Shown here in pieces: positions 4,336 to 15,884 of a stretch of 16,102 bases of DNA. The notes under the pieces are model-generated. The model made no database searches. It was given only the letters and a program-made list of their open reading frames with translations, and was not told the origin of the DNA. Position numbers and translations under genes: made by a program. Where the stretch lies: positions 146,759-162,860 of the IMG/VR virus record IMGVR_UViG_3300027673_000001; one strand, 5' to 3'. Source of the DNA: a virus. Lineage: Duplodnaviria > Heunggongvirae > Uroviricota > Caudoviricetes. How positions within the stretch are numbered: the first letter of the stretch is position 1; each line of letters opens with the position of its first letter.

Positions 4336-4908
4336 TTAAGCGGAGACGGTGAGTACTGCTACGTCAGAGGTAACAGGAGCAGCTCCAGAGCCCGAAACTT
4401 CTACTCTGTACTTGTCGCCGTTGTTTGCAACTGTTCTTGCGGTGAGAGCTAGAGAAGCAGAAGTTGCTCCAGGTACGTCAACCCAAGCACCAGTTTCAGC
4501 AGCTGGCTGATATTGCCACTGGTAAGCGAGAGTACCGGAAGGAGCAATGGTTGCTGTGGTTGCAAAAGTTGCTGCTCCGGCCACTGCAGTCTGGTCGGTA
4601 GGCTGAACAGTGATAGTTACTTCCACGTTTACGTCAGGCACAAACAGATCATCTGCTGCGTCTCCTGATGTTGCCACAGGCACGCTCATCGCAACGATAA
4701 GCTCTGCTTTCCAGCGCTTCTTGCCGGATGAGTCCTTGTGTGTCTTGAGAACATACCAGCCTGGGCCCTTGATTCCCTTCTTCTTGTTTGCTTCCAGAGC
4801 AGCTTCTTCTCTGTCTACGAAAAGAAACTGCGTGCCTGCTGGGTAGTCAGCAGCCTTAAGCCAGTTTGGTCTAGACGGTGTAGCGTCTGTTTTACCCCAT
4901 AGTGCCAT
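4336..4908 (-). CDS. Virion structural protein with C-terminal Ig-like domain
   Basis: N-terminal MALWGKTD...PGW motif of T4-like virion proteins. C-terminal ITVQPTDQT...TF...LAYQWQ...DVPGATSASL...GDKYRVEVS...TSDVAVLTV is a classic Ig I-set pattern. AAGGAG SD. Confidence 0.8.
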   Translation of the reverse strand: MALWGKTDATPSRPNWLKAADYPAGTQFLFVDREEAALEANKKKGIKGPGWYVLKTHKDSSGKKRWKAELIVAMSVPVATSGDAADDLFVPDVNVEVTITVQPTDQTAVAGAATFATTATIAPSGTLAYQWQYQPAAETGAWVDVPGATSASLALTARTVANNGDKYRVEVSGSGAAPVTSDVAVLTVSA

Positions 4909-4913
4909 TCTCT

Positions 4914-5534
4914 TTACTCCTTGATTTGCTTGGTGATGAAGGAAGCGAGAGAATCTACGCTAAGCCCTTCTGCTATTGGTTGAGTTTCAACTGACTCAGT
5001 CTTAGGCGCTGGCTTTTCTTCAGCTTCCTTCTTCTTGATGTTGCTTACTGCTTTCTTGCCTGCCTTGTAGAGCATTGCGCTACCTCTAGGTGCGCTCTTT
5101 ACACCTTCTTCGACAGCCTCTTCATCATCATCATCCTCTTCGTCACTTTCGTTCATGGCGTCAAGAACATCCATGAGATCTTCATGATCCAGGCTTTCGA
5201 GGAAGGACATGACTTCTTCTTCGGTTTCCATGGAGTCGATAATATCGAGGCTTTCCTTTACCTTCTTCTTGTAGGAGCCATACTTGCCAGGTGGACGACC
5301 ACGCCCACGCTTAACAGGCGCGCCGCCGGTTTCACGGTTCGCTGGCTCTTCGCTTTCACCATCTTTGTTGTAACGTCTAGTGACTTTAGTCACGCCATCT
5401 TTCTTTTCGATGTCGTGCCTAGCTCCCCTAGTAGCACCGGTCATGCCCTTTGCGGCGCCGTGCTTTTTGTTGTATTCGGGAGTACCTGGCCATGCTTCTA
5501 GCAGGCTTTCGATGAGTTGATTATAGGATTTCAT
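4914..5534 (-). CDS. Putative internal head protein with AT-hook and acidic segment
   Basis: N-terminus MKSYNQLIE|SLLE|A (CTS-like), AT-hook KRGRGRPPGK (aa 75-84), acidic tract ESDEEDDDDEEAVEE. AAGGAAG SD and late box upstream. Confidence 0.65.
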   Translation of the reverse strand: MKSYNQLIESLLEAWPGTPEYNKKHGAAKGMTGATRGARHDIEKKDGVTKVTRRYNKDGESEEPANRETGGAPVKRGRGRPPGKYGSYKKKVKESLDIIDSMETEEEVMSFLESLDHEDLMDVLDAMNESDEEDDDDEEAVEEGVKSAPRGSAMLYKAGKKAVSNIKKKEAEEKPAPKTESVETQPIAEGLSVDSLASFITKQIKE

Positions 5535-5558
5535 AGTCTTCCTTTGTTGGACTTGTTT

Positions 5559-5565
5559 TATTTAG
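5559..5565 (-). promoter_or_regulatory. T4-type late promoter box CTAAATA
   Basis: Intergenic, 24 nt upstream of ATG 5534. Matches the TAAATA core of the T4 gp55 late consensus TATAAATA. Confidence 0.6.
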
Positions 5566-5578
5566 TTGAAGAGAAATG

Positions 5579-7216
5579 TTACTTGGGTTCCTTGGCTTTG
5601 ACAACATATTTGTCATCGCCTACGGGCTTCTGGACGGTGAGCTCTTCCTTGCCGTCCTTAATCTTAGTACCTGGCTTCAGATGTGTTTCGTTAACCATCC
5701 CTGCGTGTTCTGCTCCGTGCACTTTGTATCCGGACTTCTTGTAGTGAGCCTTCGCTTTTTCTACGGCGGTCTTTTCGTCTGCTGCGGTAACACGAACAAA
5801 CTTTTGCTTGGTCGCCTTACGCATTGACACAGCAGGGTGGTCTGGTTCCGATACCGTTACTGCAACACGATGCTTTTGCTCAGTTACTGTTTCAACTTCC
5901 TCATTGGCATGCTTCTTTATGTCATTGGCAAACTGCTTCTTGGTTGCTTTGATGATACCAGAGTAACGCTTATCACCCTTCTTGAAGTCGCCCTTGGCAT
6001 CAGCAGCGGTCGCATCGGCCGATGCCTTCTTCTTGTATTCGCCTAGCTTCTCGCTGGATAGTTCCTCAATAGATTCGCCTTCTGAGTGTTCAATAGAGTC
6101 ACCCATGTAATGACCCCTACCACGACCATATCCCATTGCTCTAGCCTGTGCGGCTGACTTCTTTTGGTCGGCTGTTAACCCATAATCTGGTCTGCTATTC
6201 AGGCGATTTAGGGCCTTCTTAACACCAGCAGCTCTCTTTTCCTTCTTAGGGTGGTCAGGGTTTTGTTCGTCCTGATGAGCTTTCTTCATGTAGCTTCGAA
6301 CAGTGTCTCTGTAGAGTTCTTCAATCTGTTCTTCTTCATTGATTGCCCTAACCTTGACAGTGCGGATATTATTTTGCTTCTCGAGCTTCTTAGCAAATTC
6401 ACGAGCATCGCGCTCTGCCTTATCGGGGGAGTCGTTTTTACTTTTCATGAACTTCTTTGTGGAAACCTTATAGTCGAGGTCTGACCAAGTCACAACAAAA
6501 GCAGACTCTTCAATCTCTGTTTCTTCTTTAGTAATTGAGTACCTAATCCTGGACAATACACCATGTTGGTCAGGGTACTTACCTGTTTTCTTTTTTACTT
6601 TGTTTGCTGCTCTAGCTTCGCCTTCTTCTCTGCCTAGGACTCTTTGCTTTTCTTTCTTAGATGCAGTCCCAGCAGACCACTTATCGTTTAGGCGTTCTCT
6701 GTCTTTTTCTGCTGCATCAGAATACTTCAGCATCTTATCTACTGACAACTCATCAATCTGTTCAGAGTCTTCAGACACTTTCTTACCAAGGAGTTTGTTC
6801 TTCTCCTTGTTCTTCTTTACGACTTCCTTGACCTTCTTGGCTAGGGCTGGATCTGCTCTAAGCATCCAACCTGGTCTATGGTTGCCTTTAACTTCGTCAA
6901 CAGATGCACTTTCAAGTCTAACGTCGTCGGGCAGTGTGATGGAGTTCTTAACTTTGTCCTTTACTGCTTTCTTCATTGGCTCTTTTTCGTTACCATCTTT
7001 GTCAGCATCGATGAAGTCAGGCTTTTGTGCCTCGTTCATCTTTCTAGCTAGGACAGTTCTTCTTGCTGCGAGTTTAGCCATGGACTTCTTGATTGAAGTC
7101 TTCATAGTTTCGTCTTTGGCTCTGGAATAGACTTTATTGAGGTACTCAATTCTATCCTTGATGTCCTTGAGTTCGTTCTCTTTTTCTACTCTGTCGTTTT
7201 CGTTGATGTCTTCCAT
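5579..7216 (-). CDS. Modular Lys/Glu-rich putative internal head polyprotein
   Basis: 545 aa with three I[DE]EL-x7-Y..K..A repeats, a KPDFIDADKDGNEKEPMKKA motif and many hydrophobic-x-E sites. No catalytic motif seen. Confidence 0.65.
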   Translation of the reverse strand: MEDINENDRVEKENELKDIKDRIEYLNKVYSRAKDETMKTSIKKSMAKLAARRTVLARKMNEAQKPDFIDADKDGNEKEPMKKAVKDKVKNSITLPDDVRLESASVDEVKGNHRPGWMLRADPALAKKVKEVVKKNKEKNKLLGKKVSEDSEQIDELSVDKMLKYSDAAEKDRERLNDKWSAGTASKKEKQRVLGREEGEARAANKVKKKTGKYPDQHGVLSRIRYSITKEETEIEESAFVVTWSDLDYKVSTKKFMKSKNDSPDKAERDAREFAKKLEKQNNIRTVKVRAINEEEQIEELYRDTVRSYMKKAHQDEQNPDHPKKEKRAAGVKKALNRLNSRPDYGLTADQKKSAAQARAMGYGRGRGHYMGDSIEHSEGESIEELSSEKLGEYKKKASADATAADAKGDFKKGDKRYSGIIKATKKQFANDIKKHANEEVETVTEQKHRVAVTVSEPDHPAVSMRKATKQKFVRVTAADEKTAVEKAKAHYKKSGYKVHGAEHAGMVNETHLKPGTKIKDGKEELTVQKPVGDDKYVVKAKEPK

Positions 7217-7219
7217 TTT

Positions 7220-8806
7220 TTAATCCTTAGAGAGTCTATCTTTTTCGAACTGCCTTACTTTAGGCAACATCTTTACTGCGAGTCTAGCAATGACTGGCTT
7301 CATACGTTCCAGCCTCTTTTCTAGCTTTTCCTTTTCGCTAACAGTCAGCTTACTTAGATCCTTTTTAGCTAGCCTCTTCTTTAGAGCTTGAATAGCCAGG
7401 CGACGTGCTCTTTTGCTAGCTACCTTACCGTCGCTTCTTCGACTTAGAGCTATTCTTGCTCCTCGTTCTCTCTTGGCTTTTGTCCTAGCCATCTTGACCT
7501 TTGCTCTCATTCTAGCTATTCTGGAAAGTACTTCGTTGAGTCCTTCAAAATTTTCGACTTCTACTTCCTGATCGTTTTCGTCAAGTATAACAAAGTCGTC
7601 ATCATCGTAGGCTTCGTCGGATATGAAGTCATCAGTAACTTCAAGAACTATGGAGTCAAGTTCCTCATCCTCTATCGACTCATGAGCCTTGTAGTGTATC
7701 TTTCTTATTCTAGCGTACCTTTTTGACTTATCAGAAGGTAGGGTACTTAGGTGCATTAAGTGATGAGTTTCGTCTTCCTTAGGTAGATCAAGCTCAGGAA
7801 CTTCGCCCTCTGTTAGACTCTTCGCTAGGTTTTCATCAAAGGATATTTCCATCTTCCTGGCAAGATCCAACATCCTTCTTAGGATATCCTTTGCTTCCTT
7901 GTTTAGGACTTTTCTCTTTGACAACCTGAGTGCTGAATTGACTATCATTACAGGATCTGTCTTTGTCTCCGCTTCCTCAAACCCCAGAGCCATGGCAATG
8001 ATTCTAGCTGCTCTTATCTTTTCTTGTTGCTTTACCACGACTGCCTCGTTTACTTTTTCTGTTGGGATGATGTCCTTGAGCCAGACCTTTTCCTGGTTGT
8101 CTAGAATGACATAGTTTGATCCCCTGAACGTAACAGTCCTCTCGAGGATTCCGTGCGTTACTATGTCGCCAATACAGAACAACTCGTTCTTAACGTACTC
8201 TTCTCTCGCTTCGGTTCCTTCTATGATGTTCATTGCGGCCCTTAGGTCATTGAACATCATCTTTGCTGATGCGTTTGATATTGTCTTAGGAACACCAGAA
8301 AGGAACGCAGTGAAGTTATTATCCTCTGCTGCCTTTCTCATTTTGGATGCGGACATCCCAGCGGTGCCGTCGGCGTCTGGGTCTCTTTCACCCGCAGACA
8401 CTACGAGTATCGAATCGAAGTTGTAGTCCTTGCCGTTGTACTTGTCCAGGAGTGTCTTATACTCCAGAACTCTATCCGAACCTGCTACGACTATGAGTTT
8501 GGAGTATTTGGTGTTTAGGGCCCTGGCGGCTTCCATGATAGTTCTAATGCTATCTGTAGCGGGCTGAATGTTGACGCCCTTGAAAGCCATCCTTGCGAAC
8601 TTAACCTTTTGGTTAACATTCAAGGGATTCTTTTTGGGGTCTTGTGTCTTGGTCAGATATATGACATGATCCGCAGAGTACTTCTTTGACAGCACTTCGA
8701 CGGCCTTTACCAGAACCCCATGCCCTATCGTAGGTGGGTTCATCCTGCCCCAGGCTAGGACAATAGTCTTGCTCTTGGCTTCTAGTATAGGTTTCATATA
8801 TCCCAT
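7220..8806 (-). CDS. HIGH-superfamily nucleotidyltransferase ('cytidyltransferase'-like) with additional C-terminal modules
   Basis: IVLAWGRMNPPTIGH (HIGH-like), VVAGSDRV, VSAGERDPDA and GMSASKMR (KMSKS-like) motifs in aa ~14-190, followed by a highly basic C-terminal module. Confidence 0.85.
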   Translation of the reverse strand: MGYMKPILEAKSKTIVLAWGRMNPPTIGHGVLVKAVEVLSKKYSADHVIYLTKTQDPKKNPLNVNQKVKFARMAFKGVNIQPATDSIRTIMEAARALNTKYSKLIVVAGSDRVLEYKTLLDKYNGKDYNFDSILVVSAGERDPDADGTAGMSASKMRKAAEDNNFTAFLSGVPKTISNASAKMMFNDLRAAMNIIEGTEAREEYVKNELFCIGDIVTHGILERTVTFRGSNYVILDNQEKVWLKDIIPTEKVNEAVVVKQQEKIRAARIIAMALGFEEAETKTDPVMIVNSALRLSKRKVLNKEAKDILRRMLDLARKMEISFDENLAKSLTEGEVPELDLPKEDETHHLMHLSTLPSDKSKRYARIRKIHYKAHESIEDEELDSIVLEVTDDFISDEAYDDDDFVILDENDQEVEVENFEGLNEVLSRIARMRAKVKMARTKAKRERGARIALSRRSDGKVASKRARRLAIQALKKRLAKKDLSKLTVSEKEKLEKRLERMKPVIARLAVKMLPKVRQFEKDRLSKD

Positions 8807-8820
8807 TGATGTAGTGTTTA

Positions 8821-9555
8821 TTATTTATGGTTTCCCAGGATTGACTTGTGAAGCTTGATATTCAACTTGCTCTGTATCATTTCCCATGCTTCTTTGTTCT
8901 TACCTGCAGAGACTAGAGCCTTAAGTTTTACCTTCTCTTCCGTTGTCGCTATAGAGAAGAATTTAACCATTTCCATGGCGCCTACGTTCCCCTCATATGA
9001 TGCTTCCTTGAGAGTGTCAGCCCAGTTCTTAATAATGACGTTTGATTTTATACCAGACAAATACACCTTTGCGCTATTCCTAGTGAAGTTCAGGACTTCG
9101 ACTATCTCCTCGGCTTCTCGTTTTGGGGCACCATACCACAAGCTAATGTGTGGGGAAAAGTCAGGGTATGTGTGATTGCAACCCATTCCCTTGAGGTACT
9201 CGTGTATGTTTCTCAGGGTCTCAGATTCTATCTTTGCCACAATGGTAGCCTTTGCTTCGTCTCTTTCGCCATCCTTCGGTAAGTCATCGAAGCAAGCATA
9301 ACCAGAAACTATACCATGGCAGGAACCAGTGAAGCTCATTTTAACCATTTCGCCCAATAGAAAAGGGTCAAGGTTACTATCCGGAGAATACATCAAGGTG
9401 ATGTGTTTCTTTTCTGCAGGCACTTCTACGCCTTCTGCAGGCCTCAGGTTTGGTGTTATCGTCAGCTCATATATCTCAGGGTTGTCAACGCCTATGGAGA
9501 GGTAGTTGCCCTTGTTCTGAATCTGGCCTGTGTAGTATTCCTTGAAGCTTACCAT
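8821..9555 (-). CDS. acb1: Acb1/gp57B-like 2H phosphodiesterase (anti-CBASS nuclease family) with ~60-aa C-terminal extension
   Basis: H51-I-T53 (KKHITLMYS) and H136-I-S138 (HTYPDFSPHISLWY). N-terminal SFKEY...NYLS and C-terminal IIKNWADTLK align with T4 gp57B as recalled (EFKDF...LYVA; IHSTICYS; HDFDDYTPHITLSY; LKLDWADDLK). Confidence 0.85.
   Translation of the reverse strand: MVSFKEYYTGQIQNKGNYLSIGVDNPEIYELTITPNLRPAEGVEVPAEKKHITLMYSPDSNLDPFLLGEMVKMSFTGSCHGIVSGYACFDDLPKDGERDEAKATIVAKIESETLRNIHEYLKGMGCNHTYPDFSPHISLWYGAPKREAEEIVEVLNFTRNSAKVYLSGIKSNVIIKNWADTLKEASYEGNVGAMEMVKFFSIATTEEKVKLKALVSAGKNKEAWEMIQSKLNIKLHKSILGNHK
8822..8828 (-). promoter_or_regulatory. T4-type late promoter box ATAAATA
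   Basis: Overlaps the last codons and stop of the Acb1-like gene (CAT AAA TAA), 15 nt upstream of ATG 8806. Confidence 0.6.
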
Positions 9556-10193
9556 GCCTTGCAGCTCCAGTATCTTGCCTTCGTCTTTGGACCTGGGTTA
9601 TCGCAGTTGTGTCTAGCCCTAAAGGACTTCCTACGCTCAGGAATGTGCTTCTTGATGCTCATGTTCTTGTCGCCAAACTCTACTTTGACAACATTGCCTT
9701 TTTCGTTCTTGACGTAGACTTTGGACTTCTTAACGTCGCCCTTCATGGGTTTGTTTAGGGGTTTGCCTTCCTCTTCGTAGATGAAAATAATCTCACCCTC
9801 AGTCCCATCTTCGAAGATGAACCCGTCACCAAGTTGCATTTCTTCTGGTATGCAGTTGGGCACTTCCTTGCCATTCTTTTTCTTCATGCCGAGTTGTTTG
9901 TATCCCTTCCAGCAAGGATCTTTATTCTCTTCAGACTCGTTGAAGAAATGTTTATCATGTGCTTCAAGTTTTTTATTCCCGAACTTAGATCTCAACAACA
10001 TACCGATATACTCTTGCTTTGACTTTGCTGAGTGTACTCTAAATTGTTGATTAGCCATTCTTTTCAGAGAATCTGTAGGTTGCTTTTTCAGCATGGATAT
10101 ATGGTCCGCTACTTCTTTCACGTCGTCGGGAGCAGCATCATATTTCTTTTTGTAAGATTCTTCCAATGATTGGTATTCTTTGAATGATGTCAT
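9549..10193 (-). CDS. Modular basic protein: CTS-like leader, CWKGY...PNC module, C-terminal FRARHNC...YWSC (DUF6321-like) module
   Basis: True start probably ATG 10193 (MTSFKEYQSLEE; ATGA overlap with the upstream stop, GGAG SD), not 10220. Both motifs are recurrent in phage hypothetical proteins. Confidence 0.7.
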   Translation of the reverse strand: MTSFKEYQSLEESYKKKYDAAPDDVKEVADHISMLKKQPTDSLKRMANQQFRVHSAKSKQEYIGMLLRSKFGNKKLEAHDKHFFNESEENKDPCWKGYKQLGMKKKNGKEVPNCIPEEMQLGDGFIFEDGTEGEIIFIYEEEGKPLNKPMKGDVKKSKVYVKNEKGNVVKVEFGDKNMSIKKHIPERRKSFRARHNCDNPGPKTKARYWSCKAW

Positions 10194-10387
10194 TTGCTCT
10201 TCTCCGCTCTTTCTATCCATGCCTTGGCGTCACGCCTAAGGTCAAACGTATCGTATATGTATCCGTCCTTGGTATCAACTACGTTGTAGGCAGACTTTAT
10301 TCTTCCTCTTGTGTCAGACACTTCGGTTTTCTTTATGGCGTACTTTGACTTGGATTGCTCTGTTATGTAATCTTGCAAGCTAATCAT
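10190..10387 (-). CDS. Small basic putative internal protein (65 aa)
   Basis: ATG 10387 overlaps the upstream stop (ATGA). Starts MISLQDYITE|Q (CTS-like) and fills the gap between two coupled genes exactly. Confidence 0.65.
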   Translation of the reverse strand: MISLQDYITEQSKSKYAIKKTEVSDTRGRIKSAYNVVDTKDGYIYDTFDLRRDAKAWIERAEKSK

Positions 10388-11625
10388 CTCTGCCAACCTT
10401 TCATGAACATAGGGTCGAAGTTTGCCAATGAAAACTCATAGCGATCAACCAGCTTGATGGCTCCATGGTCTGATATAGCAACAAACCCCTCAGGTGATGT
10501 TACTCTAAATCCGCTCTTAGTTTTGAGGAATGTACCTATGTTGTTTGCCTGGTTCATCTTCTTGATGAGATATAGCTTTGCCTCTGCAATCATCTTGGAG
10601 AGTTCAAACAAGGCGATAATTTCTCTCTTTGGGTGCACAAGGAAGAAGTTTAGTATCTTAGTGCGACGAGCATCTGTTCTGTCTTTACCTGCCTGTGTTT
10701 TCATTCCAGATGCTTCCTTAGTAAAGCGATCATCTATGAACTTGTAAAGACCATCTACGTGAGCTTCTACGTTTGTAATCTTCTCTCCTGCTCTTACCTT
10801 GCTGTTGTCATAGGTGTGAACAAGCATAAGGAGGTCTGGGTCCTTATGTATGGCGTTGAGTGTCTGAGAGGGCATCTTTTGAAACGCTCTGCCTATGTTA
10901 GCTAGCATTGCGTCAAACGTTTTTCTCTCTTCAGGTGTGAATGTTGCTGCGCCTGTCACATCCTTGAACGTAGCATCTTCCATCCATGAGGAAGATGACT
11001 TACGAAACTTTGACGTTATGTTCTTACCAAAGCTAGCACTCAGATTTTGTATTGAGTCGCCTTCGTAGGTTGTGTGCCAAACGATTCCTATGTTGCTACC
11101 TAGTATCCTCTTGCCTAGCGCAGAGTTTAGGGGGACGGCGTAGAGTATTGTGTTGGGATGAAAGGTAATGTACTTGGTGCCATCTATAGTCTGGCTTTTC
11201 AAGTCATTACGGGTGAACATGATGTCTCCCTGGTAAACACCACTCTTTATCCCCAGCTTCTTACACTCCGTGAAAGCCACTTTTAGCTTGTCTGCTAGGT
11301 CGCCTGAGGTATCGGAGTCTATGTCCTCATGACTGTAGTATAGCTTGGGGTTCTTGTTAAACAAGCCTTTCTTGGCTATGAAGAACTTTCCGTTTTCGGG
11401 GTTGATACCAGCAAAGACAGCTGGCGCCCCGTCCCATTTCACTGTGGTTACGGTCTTCTTGTTGTCGTTGCCTTGGCTTAGCATATCCCTAACGTCTCTC
11501 AGGAACATGATTGCCTTGCGTGTGCCTTCAACACCCAGGTCAAAGACTAGCTGTTCTAGGTGCTGCATATGGGTATTGGCAGCAGCCTCATTCATATAGG
11601 ACTTAAGAGATCTTACATTAGGCAT
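10384..11625 (-). CDS. ATP-dependent ligase-fold (RNA ligase-like) nucleotidyltransferase, DUF6267-like
   Basis: Motif I TVK63WDG, motif III-like GVYQGDIMF, motif IV PE379GFV, motif V-like AIK391LVDR. N-terminal NTHMQHLE is typical of this T4-like family. Confidence 0.7.
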   Translation of the reverse strand: MPNVRSLKSYMNEAAANTHMQHLEQLVFDLGVEGTRKAIMFLRDVRDMLSQGNDNKKTVTTVKWDGAPAVFAGINPENGKFFIAKKGLFNKNPKLYYSHEDIDSDTSGDLADKLKVAFTECKKLGIKSGVYQGDIMFTRNDLKSQTIDGTKYITFHPNTILYAVPLNSALGKRILGSNIGIVWHTTYEGDSIQNLSASFGKNITSKFRKSSSSWMEDATFKDVTGAATFTPEERKTFDAMLANIGRAFQKMPSQTLNAIHKDPDLLMLVHTYDNSKVRAGEKITNVEAHVDGLYKFIDDRFTKEASGMKTQAGKDRTDARRTKILNFFLVHPKREIIALFELSKMIAEAKLYLIKKMNQANNIGTFLKTKSGFRVTSPEGFVAISDHGAIKLVDRYEFSLANFDPMFMKGWQR

Positions 11626-12425
11626 TTGAACTCTGCTTTGTTTTCTATAATGTTGACTGTCTTACCATCTATGGGTGCTATGTTGTAGGGGGAAGAGTTC
11701 TTAGGCAGAGCAAATTCGATGGTAAACGTAAACTGGTATCCCTGAGCACCAATCCTTCCTTTGGATTTTTCCTCGGCGTCAGCCTTTGTGACGCCCTTGG
11801 ATTGGCAACGAACACGAGCCGTGATCCTACACACATCCTCAAACCTGGGGATCAAAGGTTGTCCCAGCTTAGCCATTCTTTGATTCAACCCAAGAGGGTC
11901 TTGACTTCCCAACAGATAAAACCCATGAGTACCTACGTTGATGTAATAGGTGCTTTTCAGGTTATAATACCTAGTCATGGAGTTTGAGGGCAGCTCCATC
12001 TTTATGTCAGGACACGTCTTGAGGTCCATGTCATAGCGATCTCTTAAGGGAATGCCTAGCATTTGTCTTTCCCATTCAGGCGTTCTATCAGAGACGTTAT
12101 AAACAGGCATGGTCCACTTGTCGTTGATCTTTTGTAGAACACCAGAGAACTTTGCCAAATCTGCCAGAAACTGCTTTTCTGTTTCGTCGTGCTCAATCTC
12201 TCCAAACCTCCAATGTGGCTTGGATCTAGCATAGGCCTTGATAACAAGGGAGCCGCCAGCAGTTGGTGATATCTTTAGTTCACACCCAGCTTGCTTACCT
12301 CTTACGGTTAGCATCAGGTCAGGCCTGGTGTGTGAAGCGCCAGCAGTTATTCCGTCAGACAGGTCAAATTTCTTGAGGAACTTTGTGGCGTTTTCCTCAT
12401 ACACAAACCCTTGTTGAGCCGCCAT
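11613..12425 (-). CDS. PD-(D/E)XK restriction-endonuclease-like protein (paralog B)
   Basis: GFVYE10...AGASHTRP35D36L...GCE49LK51. AAGGAG SD and TAA-ATG junction with the upstream paralog. Confidence 0.7.
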   Translation of the reverse strand: MAAQQGFVYEENATKFLKKFDLSDGITAGASHTRPDLMLTVRGKQAGCELKISPTAGGSLVIKAYARSKPHWRFGEIEHDETEKQFLADLAKFSGVLQKINDKWTMPVYNVSDRTPEWERQMLGIPLRDRYDMDLKTCPDIKMELPSNSMTRYYNLKSTYYINVGTHGFYLLGSQDPLGLNQRMAKLGQPLIPRFEDVCRITARVRCQSKGVTKADAEEKSKGRIGAQGYQFTFTIEFALPKNSSPYNIAPIDGKTVNIIENKAEFKCLM

Positions 12426-13115
12426 TTATGGTTTCTCCTTTGGATCAACATCCAAGTCATGATGTGACTTATCCGCATCCTTGAGACCCATAACGATTAG
12501 AGCACCGTATTTCTTCTTGCCGTTTTTGTCGGTGCCTCTGTACTTCATTCTGGCTCTTAGTTGAGTTTTTCCATGAAGTTCCGGTGAACCCAACTTGCCC
12601 TCGTCATGGCCGGTGTGGTAGAAACCATGCCCTCCACCAATTTGGATATAGTTGGTCTTTCTGTCCTTGCCGTAATGAGCCTTGATTGGATCAGCATCTG
12701 GGTGCATATGGTAAACGTTACCCTTCTGCAGATCCTTATCATAGTCTCCGGTGGGCTTATCCCACTGCTTGTTTACTTTCTCAAGGAAACCCGTGGCATG
12801 AATAGCTTCTGCTGTGTGGGGATACTTCTTTGCTGCCTTGGGGGAAATATGCCATCTTTCACCGTCATGATGAAGTTCGATTTGCCCGAACATGGCTTTG
12901 TGATCGGCCTTGATTTCTAGGTTGTGTTCCTTACCATTGTGGTGGAACTTCGCATCAGGGGCGTCAGCAGAAGACCCGGCCACTTTGGCGTCCTTGTCTG
13001 CTTTCCCGTGTTTCTTCAGGCGATCGTTGATAGTGACTTCATAGTCTCTCCCTCCTTGCCCTACGGCCTCGGAAAGATACTTTGCGTATGAATAGTCTTT
13101 GAAATTTTGAAACAT
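12426..13115 (-). CDS. PD-(D/E)XK restriction-endonuclease-like protein (paralog A), CTS-like leader
   Basis: MFQNFKDYSYAKYLSE|A leader, then GRDYE26...AGSSADAP53D54A...NLE67IK69. Confidence 0.7.
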   Translation of the reverse strand: MFQNFKDYSYAKYLSEAVGQGGRDYEVTINDRLKKHGKADKDAKVAGSSADAPDAKFHHNGKEHNLEIKADHKAMFGQIELHHDGERWHISPKAAKKYPHTAEAIHATGFLEKVNKQWDKPTGDYDKDLQKGNVYHMHPDADPIKAHYGKDRKTNYIQIGGGHGFYHTGHDEGKLGSPELHGKTQLRARMKYRGTDKNGKKKYGALIVMGLKDADKSHHDLDVDPKEKP

Positions 13116-13116
13116 A

Positions 13117-13153
13117 AAAACCCCATAAATGTATTGACTATTTATGGGGTTTT
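13117..13153 (-). terminator. Perfect 14-bp hairpin after the helicase gene, containing a late-promoter box (ATAAATA, 13145-13139) and the RBS of the next gene
   Basis: AAAACCCCATAAAT (13117-13130), 9-nt loop, ATTTATGGGGTTTT (13140-13153). Immediately after the helicase stop (13158) and 1 nt before ATG 13115. Confidence 0.8.
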
Positions 13154-13157
13154 GTCT

Positions 13158-14546
13158 TTAGAACTTGAGTCCGTCTGCCTTTATCCTCTTACCAAAACTG
13201 GACTTGTCAAACGCAGGGGTATCGTCATCTTCGTTTGTTTTGCCCCTGGCAAACCCTTGTTGAGCAGCTTGCTCAACGTTATGGAACTTCATCCTAGCAG
13301 CATCCATTCCGACAACAAAGGTTCTATACCTAGACACATCGCCGTATCTATTCTTGAGCTGCTTTATCATTGCCTGGCCAAGGTCATCAAGCTCCTCAGT
13401 CCTAATCAAAGCCAAGTAGAGGTCAAGAGCGTGTACGATACCCATGGACTCAGAAGTATCTGTCATGTCCACATCAGAGGTTCCTATGCCTCCTCGGTTA
13501 AGCTGAGTAGCAGTTACCCCAGGGCAGTCATTCTCTATCATCAAAGCCCTTAGTTCCTCCGCAACACTTTTCATGATAGTGTAGGAGTTGGCTTGGGCGT
13601 TCCTGACTCTCTGTGATGTGAAGATATTCAGGTAGTCGATGCAGATTAGGTCTGGCTTGAAGTTCTTCTTGGCTTTCAGTTCCTCAATAAGAGCCCTGAT
13701 ATGCCCGGCGTGAGCTGTAGAGGTGGGGTACTCCTTGACAATCAGTTTTCCTTCTGTCTTTGCTTTGATCTTTTCAATCCTGTTAATGAAGATGTCATGA
13801 GGTACATCCTTGAGCTCGTTAACAGGGGTGTTCATCATGTTGGCGTCGATTCTCTGGGCTATCTTCTCCTCGCTCATTTCAGCAGTGACGTAAAGAACAT
13901 TCTTACCTTGCTTCAGGGCGTTTGCTGCTATGTGGCACATAAGAATGGACTTACCACCGCCGGTTTGAGCTGCGATACAAGTTAGAGTTTTCTTACGAAG
14001 ACCAACGCCGTCTGTAATCTCATTCAGTAGATCAATATCGAAGGGTATGCCTTCTTCTTTCGAGTGATAGGAGTCGAAACGTTCCTCGGCATTCTCCAGG
14101 TAGTCATGCCCAACGTTCATATCGAAAGTAACAGACAAGGCTTCCTGAAGAAGAGAAGGGATTGCATCCTCGCTCAATTTACCATTCTTGCCGTCTATGA
14201 TTTCGATACTATCAAGAATAGCTAAGTAGACTGCTCGCTTCTGATAGTAAGACTCCGCTTGGTTGACAAGCCACTCGGCATTTGTATCTTTGTTTTCCAG
14301 GGACTGAACAAAGGCAGGAATGAATTTGGCATCATTCTGAGACAAATCTTTTCTAGCCAGAACCTCTACTTCAAGAATGTCCTTTGTGATGACCTTGTTG
14401 TACTTGTTGAAGTACTCCTGAATAGTGGAAACTATGATTTGGTTTGAGTGGTCTTCAAAGTAGATTGGCTTCGTAAAAGGGAGGACCTTTCTACAAAACT
14501 CCTCACTAAAAACGAAGCCACTGATGATTTGTTCTTCTAGATTCAT
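13158..14546 (-). CDS. 41: T4-like replicative DNA helicase (gp41, DnaB family)
   Basis: Walker A AQTGGGKS, YVTAEM, LIVKEYPT, Walker B ICIDYLNI, TATQLNRGG, SESMG, QLKNRYGD. Confidence 0.96.
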   Translation of the reverse strand: MNLEEQIISGFVFSEEFCRKVLPFTKPIYFEDHSNQIIVSTIQEYFNKYNKVITKDILEVEVLARKDLSQNDAKFIPAFVQSLENKDTNAEWLVNQAESYYQKRAVYLAILDSIEIIDGKNGKLSEDAIPSLLQEALSVTFDMNVGHDYLENAEERFDSYHSKEEGIPFDIDLLNEITDGVGLRKKTLTCIAAQTGGGKSILMCHIAANALKQGKNVLYVTAEMSEEKIAQRIDANMMNTPVNELKDVPHDIFINRIEKIKAKTEGKLIVKEYPTSTAHAGHIRALIEELKAKKNFKPDLICIDYLNIFTSQRVRNAQANSYTIMKSVAEELRALMIENDCPGVTATQLNRGGIGTSDVDMTDTSESMGIVHALDLYLALIRTEELDDLGQAMIKQLKNRYGDVSRYRTFVVGMDAARMKFHNVEQAAQQGFARGKTNEDDDTPAFDKSSFGKRIKADGLKF

Positions 14547-14839
14547 GTTCCGCCGATGAAAGCAATGGGTAAGTTTCTAAGACCGTTTGATAGACAATGA
14601 ACTAGAAAGTCCCCTATCCTCAATGAGAGTTCAGGAGAGTCAGGACCCTTTAGTACTTCATAAGTATAACTTATCTTTGCGTTTTCTTCAACTTCATTCT
14701 CTGTGATTTTGACTTCCCCAACAATGAACTTGGTTGCGGGGAAGTCATCCAGAGTAATGACGTACCGAGGAGCATCGTTGATTTCGATCTCCTCTACGTT
14801 AAACTCTACAGGTCTCATCTCAATCTTCAATGCTTTCAA
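14543..14839 (-). CDS. Small protein at the gp40 (head vertex assembly chaperone) position
   Basis: 98 aa between uvsX and gene 41, overlapping both. Synteny only; sequence similarity to T4 gp40 is not evident by eye. Confidence 0.5.
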   Translation of the reverse strand: MKALKIEMRPVEFNVEEIEINDAPRYVITLDDFPATKFIVGEVKITENEVEENAKISYTYEVLKGPDSPELSLRIGDFLVHCLSNGLRNLPIAFIGGT

Positions 14840-15884
14840 TCACTTCGTCCAATTCCGTATCGGACATGATTGAACCAGAAGCCACTTTGTAGGTCTTCTC
14901 TACCCAGTCCTTGAATGTCTTGTCCTTAAGTACAGGACCCCAGAATGATTCATTGAAGGTGTCCTTCAGGCGATACTTCTTGTCCTCAATCTCGCCAGTT
15001 TCAAGATTGACTCTAGAGTACCAACCGTTGGAAGGTTTCATAACGTGACCACTCTCGAGAGCCATATCCAACAGACCAGAGTACTTGTTGATACCGTGCT
15101 CGTGAGTTACAGTAATCGGTATCTTTGCCTTCTCGCGAGTGAAGCGAGACTTTTCAATGTTGATGACGAAGTTGTAACCAACCAGATCTGCTCCGTCTTT
15201 TTCTTGCTGACGCCCGATGACGAAGATAGTGTTTGCGGAGTAGTAGATACCCGTTCCGCCAGACACAACAGTCTTGGAGAACATTTCCTGTGTCTGATAT
15301 GTGTGGTTGATAACCCAGAAAGGCAACTGCTTGATAGTCAGTACGGGAGTCACCATCCTGAACAGGGACTTTAGTTGTTTTGCTCTCGACATATCCGCAA
15401 CGGACTTTCCTTCGAGGGCGTCTTCAACTTCTTTCTTGGAAGCGATGTTACCAGCAGAGTCTAGGGCGATGAAGATCTTGTCTCCACGCTTGATCTCCTC
15501 AAGCTGCTTCATAATATCGAACTTCAATTCCTCGATGTTAGCTACTGGGGTGTGAACAACTCTTGAAACATCAATACCGAAGCTCTCGAAGTAGGACTGG
15601 GGAGATCCAAACTCAGAGTCATAGAACAGCACTACCCCGTCCTTGTGTTTGTCGAGGAATGCCTTAATTGCCAGAAGCGTAAAGCTGGTCTTGAAGTGCT
15701 TGGAAGGACCTGCGATAACAGTCAACCCCGAAGAGTAGCCACCGTCAAGGCTTCCGCTAAGTGCTACGTTGAAAGCAGGAACGCTAGTCCTCACGAACTC
15801 CTGGTCCTCGAAGAACTTTGATTCGCTGAGTACGGATGTTTCCTTGATTGTGCTATTCTTTTTCAGTTTGTCTATGAGACTCAT
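14820..15884 (-). CDS. uvsX: UvsX RecA-like recombinase
   Basis: NVALSGSLDGG, Walker A GPSKHFKT, LFYDSEFG, ALDSAGN, DMSRAKQLKSLFR, INHTY, SGGTGIYYSA. Confidence 0.97.
   Translation of the reverse strand: MSLIDKLKKNSTIKETSVLSESKFFEDQEFVRTSVPAFNVALSGSLDGGYSSGLTVIAGPSKHFKTSFTLLAIKAFLDKHKDGVVLFYDSEFGSPQSYFESFGIDVSRVVHTPVANIEELKFDIMKQLEEIKRGDKIFIALDSAGNIASKKEVEDALEGKSVADMSRAKQLKSLFRMVTPVLTIKQLPFWVINHTYQTQEMFSKTVVSGGTGIYYSANTIFVIGRQQEKDGADLVGYNFVINIEKSRFTREKAKIPITVTHEHGINKYSGLLDMALESGHVMKPSNGWYSRVNLETGEIEDKKYRLKDTFNESFWGPVLKDKTFKDWVEKTYKVASGSIMSDTELDEVIESIED

Follow-up and report, generated by a model that had tools for sequence, protein, structure and literature searches.

A protein of the DUF6267 family, encoded near the end of a T4-like phage genome, is a candidate covalent nucleotidyltransferase of a divergent kind, forming a lysyl-nucleoside monophosphate (lysyl-NMP) intermediate. 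We lean towards reading it as an enzyme of this class, most probably a polynucleotide ligase, that a leader peptide would load into the head of this phage. The DNA analysed here (the window, 16,102 nucleotides) is the final 16.1 kb of a virus record that is complete at 162,860 bp and carries direct terminal repeats (IMG/VR record IMGVR_UViG_3300027673_000001). Its gene content is that of a T4-like myovirus, and all of its genes lie on the minus strand, as do all window features described below. Landmarks include the UvsX recombinase (14820-15884), the gp41 helicase (13158-14546), the gp61 primase (1607-2680), NrdB and NrdA; between the helicase and the primase lies a block of poorly known genes, which includes the DUF6267 open reading frame (ORF; 10384-11625). 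Few unexplained genes are as widespread in marine T4-like phages as DUF6267, which belongs to the core shared by all 16 cyanomyoviruses in the classic comparison; assigning it a ligase fold provides a biochemical function that can be tested.

Conserved motifs and the predicted fold

The gene at 10384-11625 translates without a stop into 413 amino acids, and its assignment as a predicted nucleotidyltransferase of the ligase superfamily draws on the translation, Pfam, an AlphaFold2 model and structural searches. A first-pass annotation, made from the sequence alone, had described a hypothetical DUF6267-like protein, and the Pfam match to DUF6267 (PF19782) over residues 17-404 leaves no ambiguity about the family (E 2.4e-105 and 353 bits, the family cut-off being 27). 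The protein also belongs to phrog_455, matching its N-terminal half. In one gene call (P0002, 403 amino acids) the protein begins at M11; the M1 start is favoured, since P0003 and P0004 conserve residues 1-13, which also fit a family-wide leader. The family is very large, with more than 8,000 close relatives and 2,543 clusters at 50% identity. A scan of cellular genomes yielded 14 DUF6267 matches, all on contigs of metagenome-assembled genomes from unrelated taxa; we read these as mis-binned phage DNA, and they provide no cellular context. The ESM Atlas, searched by shape and by features, returned DUF6267 clusters only. In the open-access literature we found no paper naming DUF6267, nor any on such a ligase in cyanophages.

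The annotation had singled out four ligase-type motifs, TVK63WDG, GVYQGD134IMF, PE379GFV and AIK391LVDRYEFS, and translation and alignment place all four exactly where it put them. An alignment of 79 homologues (33-85% identity) has just 18 invariant columns. Eight of these are K63, D65, G66, G133, D134, E379, G380 and K391; the others include H22, K86, N158, Y162, H184 and N274. Motif I (T-V-K63-W-D65-G66; 11428-11445) forms a strand-loop-strand unit in the model, with flanking strands at residues 59-63 and 69-74. K63 (codon 11439-11437) is the presumed nucleotidyl acceptor, and K63-W-D65-G66 is unchanged in 79 of 79 homologues. Motif III (G-V-Y-Q-G133-D134-I-M-F; 11215-11241) occupies a strand at residues 130-138 in the model, its acid being Asp in place of the usual Glu, and is followed by a pair of strands resembling motif IIIa (F155-x-P-N158-T-I-x-Y162; 11140-11163), in which N158 and Y162 are invariant. 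Motif IV (P-E379-G380-F-V-A; 10477-10494) is likewise a strand, the invariant E379-G380 being placed by the model on residues 380-385. Motif V (A-I-K391-L-V-D-R395, then F398-S; 10429-10461) is a strand with K391 as its sole, invariant Lys; the second position of K-x-K is Val, and R395 is nearly invariant. A further signature, H19-x-x-H22-x-E-D (11551-11571), is specific to the family and stands just ahead of a long helix (residues 23-51); H22 is invariant and H19 is present in 77 of 78 sequences.

An AlphaFold2 model built from the family alignment has a predicted local distance difference test score (pLDDT) of 93.6 and a predicted template modelling score of 0.90. Its strands run in the order of a strand-K63xDG-strand unit followed by strands bearing D134, F155/N158/Y162, E379G and K391, a pattern that, in the model, is that of the ligase nucleotidyltransferase domain. 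An exhaustive structural search is headed by NgrRnl (Z 8.3 over 183 amino acids), REL1 (7.9), Trl1 (7.7), T4 Rnl2 (7.6) and T4 Rnl1 (6.7), and also lists many DNA ligases, including T4 gp30 (Z 5.6); the non-ligase matches are all helical bundles that fall on the insert, lying over residues 28-362. In a second structural look, ATP-dependent ligases filled 48 of the 50 best entries, again led by NgrRnl (Z 8.7, 184 amino acids, root-mean-square deviation (rmsd) 3.6). The proposal had been staked beforehand on this fold, and both the model and the ranking of its matches came out in its favour. Residues 142-338 of NgrRnl align with residues 15-404 of the model, so that NgrRnl E312 and motif V fall about one residue from E379 and K391, and K170 falls about one residue from K63 once the longer N-terminal helix is allowed for. 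T4 Rnl2 aligns over residues 3-233 with residues 15-400 of the model, and motif order, strand placement and end-to-end register against both enzymes agree with motifs I, III, IV and V. On the strength of the predicted structure and the invariant motifs, DUF6267 very probably has a ligase fold with a live active site.

Several observations count against this picture and against the activity that we derive from it. A Pfam search of the protein finds DUF6267 only and no ligase family; phmmer and profile hmmsearch against PDB sequences, and an NCBIfam search, gave no ligase match; and an hhalign comparison of the DUF6267 alignment with that of the family of the phage's own Rnl5-type ligase returned a probability of 0.3%. 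Foldseek against the PDB gives weak E-values (0.035), yet DNA ligases and T4 Rnl1 head its list. The Z scores (8.7 at best) are borderline with respect to the structural search's grey zone, and convergence of the motifs in three dimensions is argued solely from their order, secondary structure and alignment ranges. Motif III carries Asp and not Glu, motif V a single Lys and not K-x-K, and Pro68 replaces the Arg of KxDGxR. As had been noted, no OB domain with motif VI follows motif V, and the protein stops 22 residues past K391. At the level of function, some special role has to be found for a third joining enzyme, given that the phage already has a DNA ligase and an Rnl5-type RNA ligase, and, to our knowledge, the adenylyltransferase encoded as the partner of DUF6267 has no place in textbook ligation. 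Since sequence and profile methods are blind to the relationship, the ligase-fold assignment rests on predicted structure and invariant motifs.

A sceptical alternative is that DUF6267 lacks activity and serves as a ligase-like scaffold or an internal head protein, or that its resemblance to ligases is a chance arrangement of strands. The failure to find sequence-level homology to ligases and Z scores below 9 would fit such a view. Set against it are the invariance of the motif I, III, IV and V residues in the 79 homologues and in truncated forms (G133 is Ala in two), and the fact that 48 of the 50 best structural matches come from one enzyme superfamily; we regard it as highly improbable.

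The most distinctive part of the model is a helical insert of six helices (residues 231-358; 10552-10935), which lies between motif IIIa and motif IV, packs with the long helix 23-51 and contains the invariant N274 and the near-invariant K350. The first-pass annotation had proposed a substrate-binding insertion of about 240 amino acids between motifs III and IV. The insertion stands, whereas its size shrinks to about 130 amino acids, because the remainder of the 245 residues separating these motifs consists of ordinary strands of the fold; a role in substrate binding is plausible. A catalytic domain that houses a helical module and dispenses with the OB domain is an unusual architecture for the superfamily. 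Some cyanophages have short DUF6267 proteins (295-324 amino acids), such as S-CREM2 gp87 (L010:3891-4778), S-SM1_189 (L111:1796-2770) and Syn9 gp183 (L112:1272-2234). These have lost the central part of the helical insert, along with a portion of the N-terminal helix, but keep N274 and K350, and all 18 invariant residues are retained bar G180 and G133 (the latter Ala in S-SM1 and Syn9); they would be useful minimal versions for biochemistry.

Nucleic-acid joining and the ligases of T4-like phages

In known ligases, motifs III, IV and V hold ribose, metal and phosphate. From the position of the corresponding residues we infer the catalysis, substrate and cofactor of the DUF6267 protein as follows. 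K63 would take AMP from ATP, or possibly from NAD+, while D134, E379 and K391 would hold ribose, metal and phosphate. The AMP would then be handed to a 5'-phosphate end, and attack by a 3'-OH would seal the break. The helical module, formed by helix 23-51 and the insert with its invariant N274, may hold the nucleic acid and thereby replace the OB or C-terminal domain of other ligases. We consider it somewhat probable that DUF6267 joins polynucleotides; a capping-type role, also raised in the first-pass annotation, is not favoured.

The best core match, NgrRnl of Naegleria gruberi (5cot/6vt0), belongs with Deinococcus DraRnl to the Rnl5 nick-sealing RNA ligases (Z 8.3-8.7, about 184 amino acids, rmsd 3.6). 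The likeness extends to the K-x-D-G of motif I and to motifs IV and V, which are in the same register counted from the C-terminal end. However, identity is 12-14% with no profile match, motif V of DUF6267 has a single Lys, and Rnl5 enzymes have an N-terminal OB domain, whereas DUF6267 has none and carries the helical insert between motifs IIIa and IV instead. T4 Rnl2 and Trypanosoma brucei REL1 are alignable over 178-193 amino acids of the nucleotidyltransferase domain (Z 7.6-7.9), but both have K-x-H-G, Rnl2 has a C-terminal nick-sensing domain, and neither has an internal helical module. The accessory domains of these two groups, C-terminal in Rnl2 and the N-terminal OB domain in Rnl5, are absent from the DUF6267 model, and the protein has no PF09414 match. 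The N-terminal domain of Rnl2 alone self-adenylylates and seals pre-adenylylated nicks; an OB domain is therefore not obligatory. Fungal Trl1 (ligase-kinase-cyclic phosphodiesterase) and T4 Rnl1 share with DUF6267 a helical accessory module and an association with a P-loop kinase and a 2H phosphoesterase, and Trl1 gives the longest alignments (200-211 amino acids, Z 7.5-7.7; Rnl1, 6.6-7.3). Their helical domain, in contrast, follows motif V, while that of DUF6267 is inserted before motif IV, and of the partners of DUF6267 the kinase and the 2H enzyme are sporadic, the adenylyltransferase being the constant one. ATP-dependent DNA ligases (T4 gp30, Chlorella virus ligase, PF01068) resemble DUF6267 in superfamily fold (Z 5.6-6.5), in K-x-D-G and in location within the replication module; they differ in that DUF6267 has Pro68 for Arg, no OB domain or motif VI and no PF01068 match.

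How DUF6267 relates to the DNA ligases is also a matter of distribution, as it is present in cyanophages where gp30 is absent, while both types coexist in this phage. The genome encodes a canonical ATP-dependent DNA ligase (a 435-amino-acid frame; G000:C1:94658-95197, L002) and a 353-amino-acid RNA ligase of Rnl5/TIGR02306 type with PF09414 and PF21189 (G000:C1:3960-4460, L003), so that DUF6267 would be its third ligase-superfamily gene. Cyanomyoviruses, by comparison, have been reported to be without gp30 homologues (PMC2984593), and T4-GC71, which is DUF6267, occurs in 16 of 16 cyanophages and in none of ten gp30-bearing T4-like phages from outside that group (supplement of PMC3037559, Sullivan et al.). 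Five complete cyanophage genomes (S-CAM3, S-SZBM1, S-CREM2, S-SM1 and Syn9) lack PF01068, PF01653 and PF09414; all five have DUF6267, which is the only ligase candidate there. DUF6267 is thereby a candidate for the ligase believed to be missing from cyanomyoviruses.

This pattern fits an alternative in which DUF6267 is a replicative or repair DNA ligase that seals nicks, a non-orthologous replacement of gp30 acting in the cytoplasm on Okazaki fragments, the leader being secondary. The location of the gene between the gp41 helicase and the gp61 primase, here and in cyanophages, agrees with such a role, and so do the cyanophage copies, which are leaderless and absent from virion proteomes. Nevertheless, the complementary distribution rests on two clades and hence on few independent events, and host LigA could serve the cyanophages. 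Both this phage and Stenotrophomonas phage DLP6 hold DUF6267 alongside a canonical ATP-dependent DNA ligase. In structure, RNA ligases come closer (Z 8.7) than DNA ligases do (6.5), and the OB domain and the Arg of motif I are missing. On balance, a nick-sealing DNA ligase in place of gp30 appears unlikely.

Partner genes

The most constant partner of DUF6267 is a HIGH-type adenylyltransferase with a PPAT/NadM/NadD-like fold and a helical C-terminal extension (7220-8806; model and comparison of loci). In 65 of 80 related viral loci, and likewise in cultured phages, a homologue on the same strand immediately follows DUF6267, and fusions of the two proteins in both orders occur in other phages, phrog_455 among them. 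The model of the adenylyltransferase (pLDDT 82) matches PPAT, NadM, NadD and NMNAT and not cytidylyltransferases; the gene is usually annotated 'cytidyltransferase', its HIGH motif reads T-x-G-H, its helical C-terminal extension is long, and relatives add a P-loop kinase and DUF5824. A complex prediction for DUF6267 residues 15-413 with adenylyltransferase residues 10-330 scored 0.00, a value that says nothing either way on binding.

Two further partners are sporadic. A P-loop kinase of the Zeta-toxin/AAA_33 type, absent from this genome, is fused to the N-terminus of DUF6267 (P0134), is fused behind the adenylyltransferase (L074, L037) or is encoded on its own nearby; it is fused or adjacent in about 14 of the 80 loci and is also found in pelagiphage HTVC008M. 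In the window, a 2H phosphoesterase (Acb1/LigT-like; 8821-9555) lies between DUF6267 and the adenylyltransferase, an insertion peculiar to this phage (none of the 80 related loci has it). Its matches are Pfam Acb1 (anti-CBASS, E 1e-10) and phrog_755, annotated 'RNA ligase' (LigT-like), and its N-terminus is leader-like. In the mechanism that we favour, the DUF6267 enzyme would cooperate with the PPAT/NMNAT-like adenylyltransferase, in relatives with the P-loop kinase and here possibly with the 2H phosphoesterase; partners of these three kinds indicate the repair or sealing of broken nucleic-acid ends.

The kinase and the 2H phosphoesterase suggest a more specific alternative, namely that DUF6267 is an RNA (tRNA) repair ligase working with the kinase and a cyclic phosphodiesterase in Trl1-like healing and sealing, and countering host anticodon nucleases. 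The longest structural alignments are indeed to the ligase domains of fungal Trl1, and the associated domains correspond to the other two Trl1 modules: a P-loop kinase in HTVC008M and the minority of loci noted above, and, in this phage, a 2H phosphoesterase encoded two genes away. Yet the 2H gene is missing from all 80 related loci and the kinase from this genome; the match of the kinase to Zeta-toxin/AAA_33 models is a general one only; RNA repair has no need of an adenylyltransferase, the partner that is found almost everywhere; and the phage already has an Rnl5-type RNA ligase. We are doubtful of a dedicated RNA-repair role.

Alternatively, the protein could be a lysyl-NMP transferase that joins no polynucleotides and instead caps or adenylylates RNA ends, proteins or small molecules, its donor perhaps being an NAD+-like dinucleotide supplied by the neighbouring enzyme. 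Such a function would account for the tight pairing and fusion with a PPAT/NMNAT-like enzyme, and fusions of kinase and adenylyltransferase recall NadR. It would also sit well with the missing OB domain, with the single Lys of motif V and with the conserved family-specific residues H19, H22, K86, H184 and N274, which have no counterpart in ligase motifs. On the other hand, ligases fill the best structural matches, with no capping enzymes among them, and capping enzymes normally need an OB domain. A transferase of this type is in our view quite unlikely.

Leader peptides and the surrounding gene block

The first 13 residues of DUF6267 (MPNVRSLKSYMNE; 11587-11625) resemble the capsid-targeting sequence of T4, with a presumed cleavage after E13, and residues 1-14 are disordered in the model. 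The T4 sequence is MKTYQEFIAE (PMC8442874), and the prohead protease cuts it once (PMC8442874; PMC3012670). The first-pass annotation had postulated a cleavable leader (MNE|A), and analogy with T4 supports it for the family as a whole: 174 of 240 DUF6267 N-termini fit the pattern M-[KL]-[TS]-[FL]-K-x-[YF]-[LI]-x-E, with a length of exactly ten residues in 140 of the 174. The copy in this phage is itself atypical. The leader is also present on 35 of 63 partner adenylyltransferases, and a gp21-type protease is encoded in the genome. In the pathway that we envisage, DUF6267 would be made as a pro-protein whose leader loads it into the prohead, the gp21-type protease would cut after E13, and the enzyme would enter the cell with the DNA.

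A search of the genome for the leader identified a block of nine genes (4914-13115), six of which start with this type of sequence, compared with five of 216 genes elsewhere (p = 2e-7). The leader starts in the block read MKSYNQLIE (4914-5534), MVSFKEYY (8821-9555), MISLQDYITE (10190-10387), MPNVRSLKSYMNE (10384-11625) and MFQNFKDYSYAKYLSE (12426-13115). ORF 9549-10220 carries a leader-like peptide internally (MTSFKEYQSLEE), and the adenylyltransferase begins MGYMKPILE. Leader-bearing neighbour genes are likewise found in C48C1, Melnitz, DSL-LC02 and HTVC008M. The closest known parallel is provided by the T4 internal proteins IPI-III, which share the gp21-type protease and the ten-residue pattern, with [LI]-x-E at its end and a small residue next, and whose leader is also common to a cluster of otherwise unrelated neighbouring genes. 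The T4 proteins, however, are small and basic and not enzymes of this sort, and the DUF6267 leader here has Met at P3 and three extra residues.

Proteomic evidence bears on the leader through the partner enzyme. The adenylyltransferase has been detected in virions of S-SM1 (T4-GC190), S-SZBM1 (gene 140) and S-CREM2 (gp154) (PMC3037559, PMC9146016, PMC10665884), and all three proteins start with the leader. DUF6267 was not detected in the virion proteomes of the same phages (T4-GC71/S-SM1_189, gene 141 and gp87, respectively), and all three of these copies are leaderless. The leader as a packaging signal is supported by this contrast between a leader-bearing partner in virions and a leaderless DUF6267 outside them, evidence that is indirect for DUF6267 itself. 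The non-detection nonetheless tells against the packaging that we propose, as does the atypical leader of this copy, with its three extra residues and Met at P3, where 168 of the 174 fitting sequences have Leu or Ile. By analogy with T4, we judge the chances that this particular DUF6267 protein is packaged via its leader to be evenly balanced. T4-GC15, a virion protein of Sullivan et al., was considered as a possible DUF6267 protein and rejected, as its gene belongs to the baseplate region; the DUF6267 cluster is T4-GC71, for which proteomics detected no product. Presence of a leader on DUF6267 shows no pattern with respect to the canonical DNA ligase: C48C1 and Melnitz have the leader without PF01068, and this phage and DLP6 have both.

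More broadly, we tentatively entertain the idea, to which we give rather less than an even chance, that DUF6267, the adenylyltransferase and the other leader-bearing neighbours (the 2H phosphoesterase, small proteins and the kinase of relatives) form a kit that is loaded into the capsid and co-injected with the genome, and that the leaderless cyanophage copies are the missing ligase. The leader shared by DUF6267, its partner and its neighbours suggests that marine T4-like phages package enzymes, and not only small inhibitors, for delivery to the host; for the adenylyltransferase this is supported by the three published virion proteomes. If the kit exists, nucleic-acid sealing and nucleotide-cofactor chemistry would begin before any phage gene expression.

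A 'head protein' gene (phrog_613; 4336-4908) lies within the replication-gene region, and gene 136 of S-SZBM1, at the corresponding place and annotated 'virion structural protein', was found in virions; the region thus mixes replication genes with virion-associated proteins.

The small ORF that starts with MISLQDYITE (10190-10387) overlaps the DUF6267 gene, its ATG and the DUF6267 stop forming ATGA at 10384-10387, an arrangement that suggests translational coupling; the automatic ORF call begins three codons earlier, at a TTG. Searches for late-promoter motifs gave no matches to TATAAATA and three to ATAAATA against 1.5 expected, which is not significant; one of the three lies inside a terminator-like hairpin. 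This hairpin (13117-13153) separates the stop codon of the gp41 helicase gene from the start (ATG) of ORF 12426-13115. It has 14 base pairs, with another two in the loop, and a T run comes after it (-17.2 kcal/mol, z -4.6); from its sequence it looks like an intrinsic terminator, marking a transcription boundary ahead of the leader-bearing block. Next to it, the tandem ORFs 11613-12425 and 12426-13115 match the N-terminal part of phrog_26930, one strongly and one weakly, and ORF 5579-7216, 5 kb away, matches its C-terminal part. None of the three matched a Pfam family, and together they may represent a duplicated, split protein.

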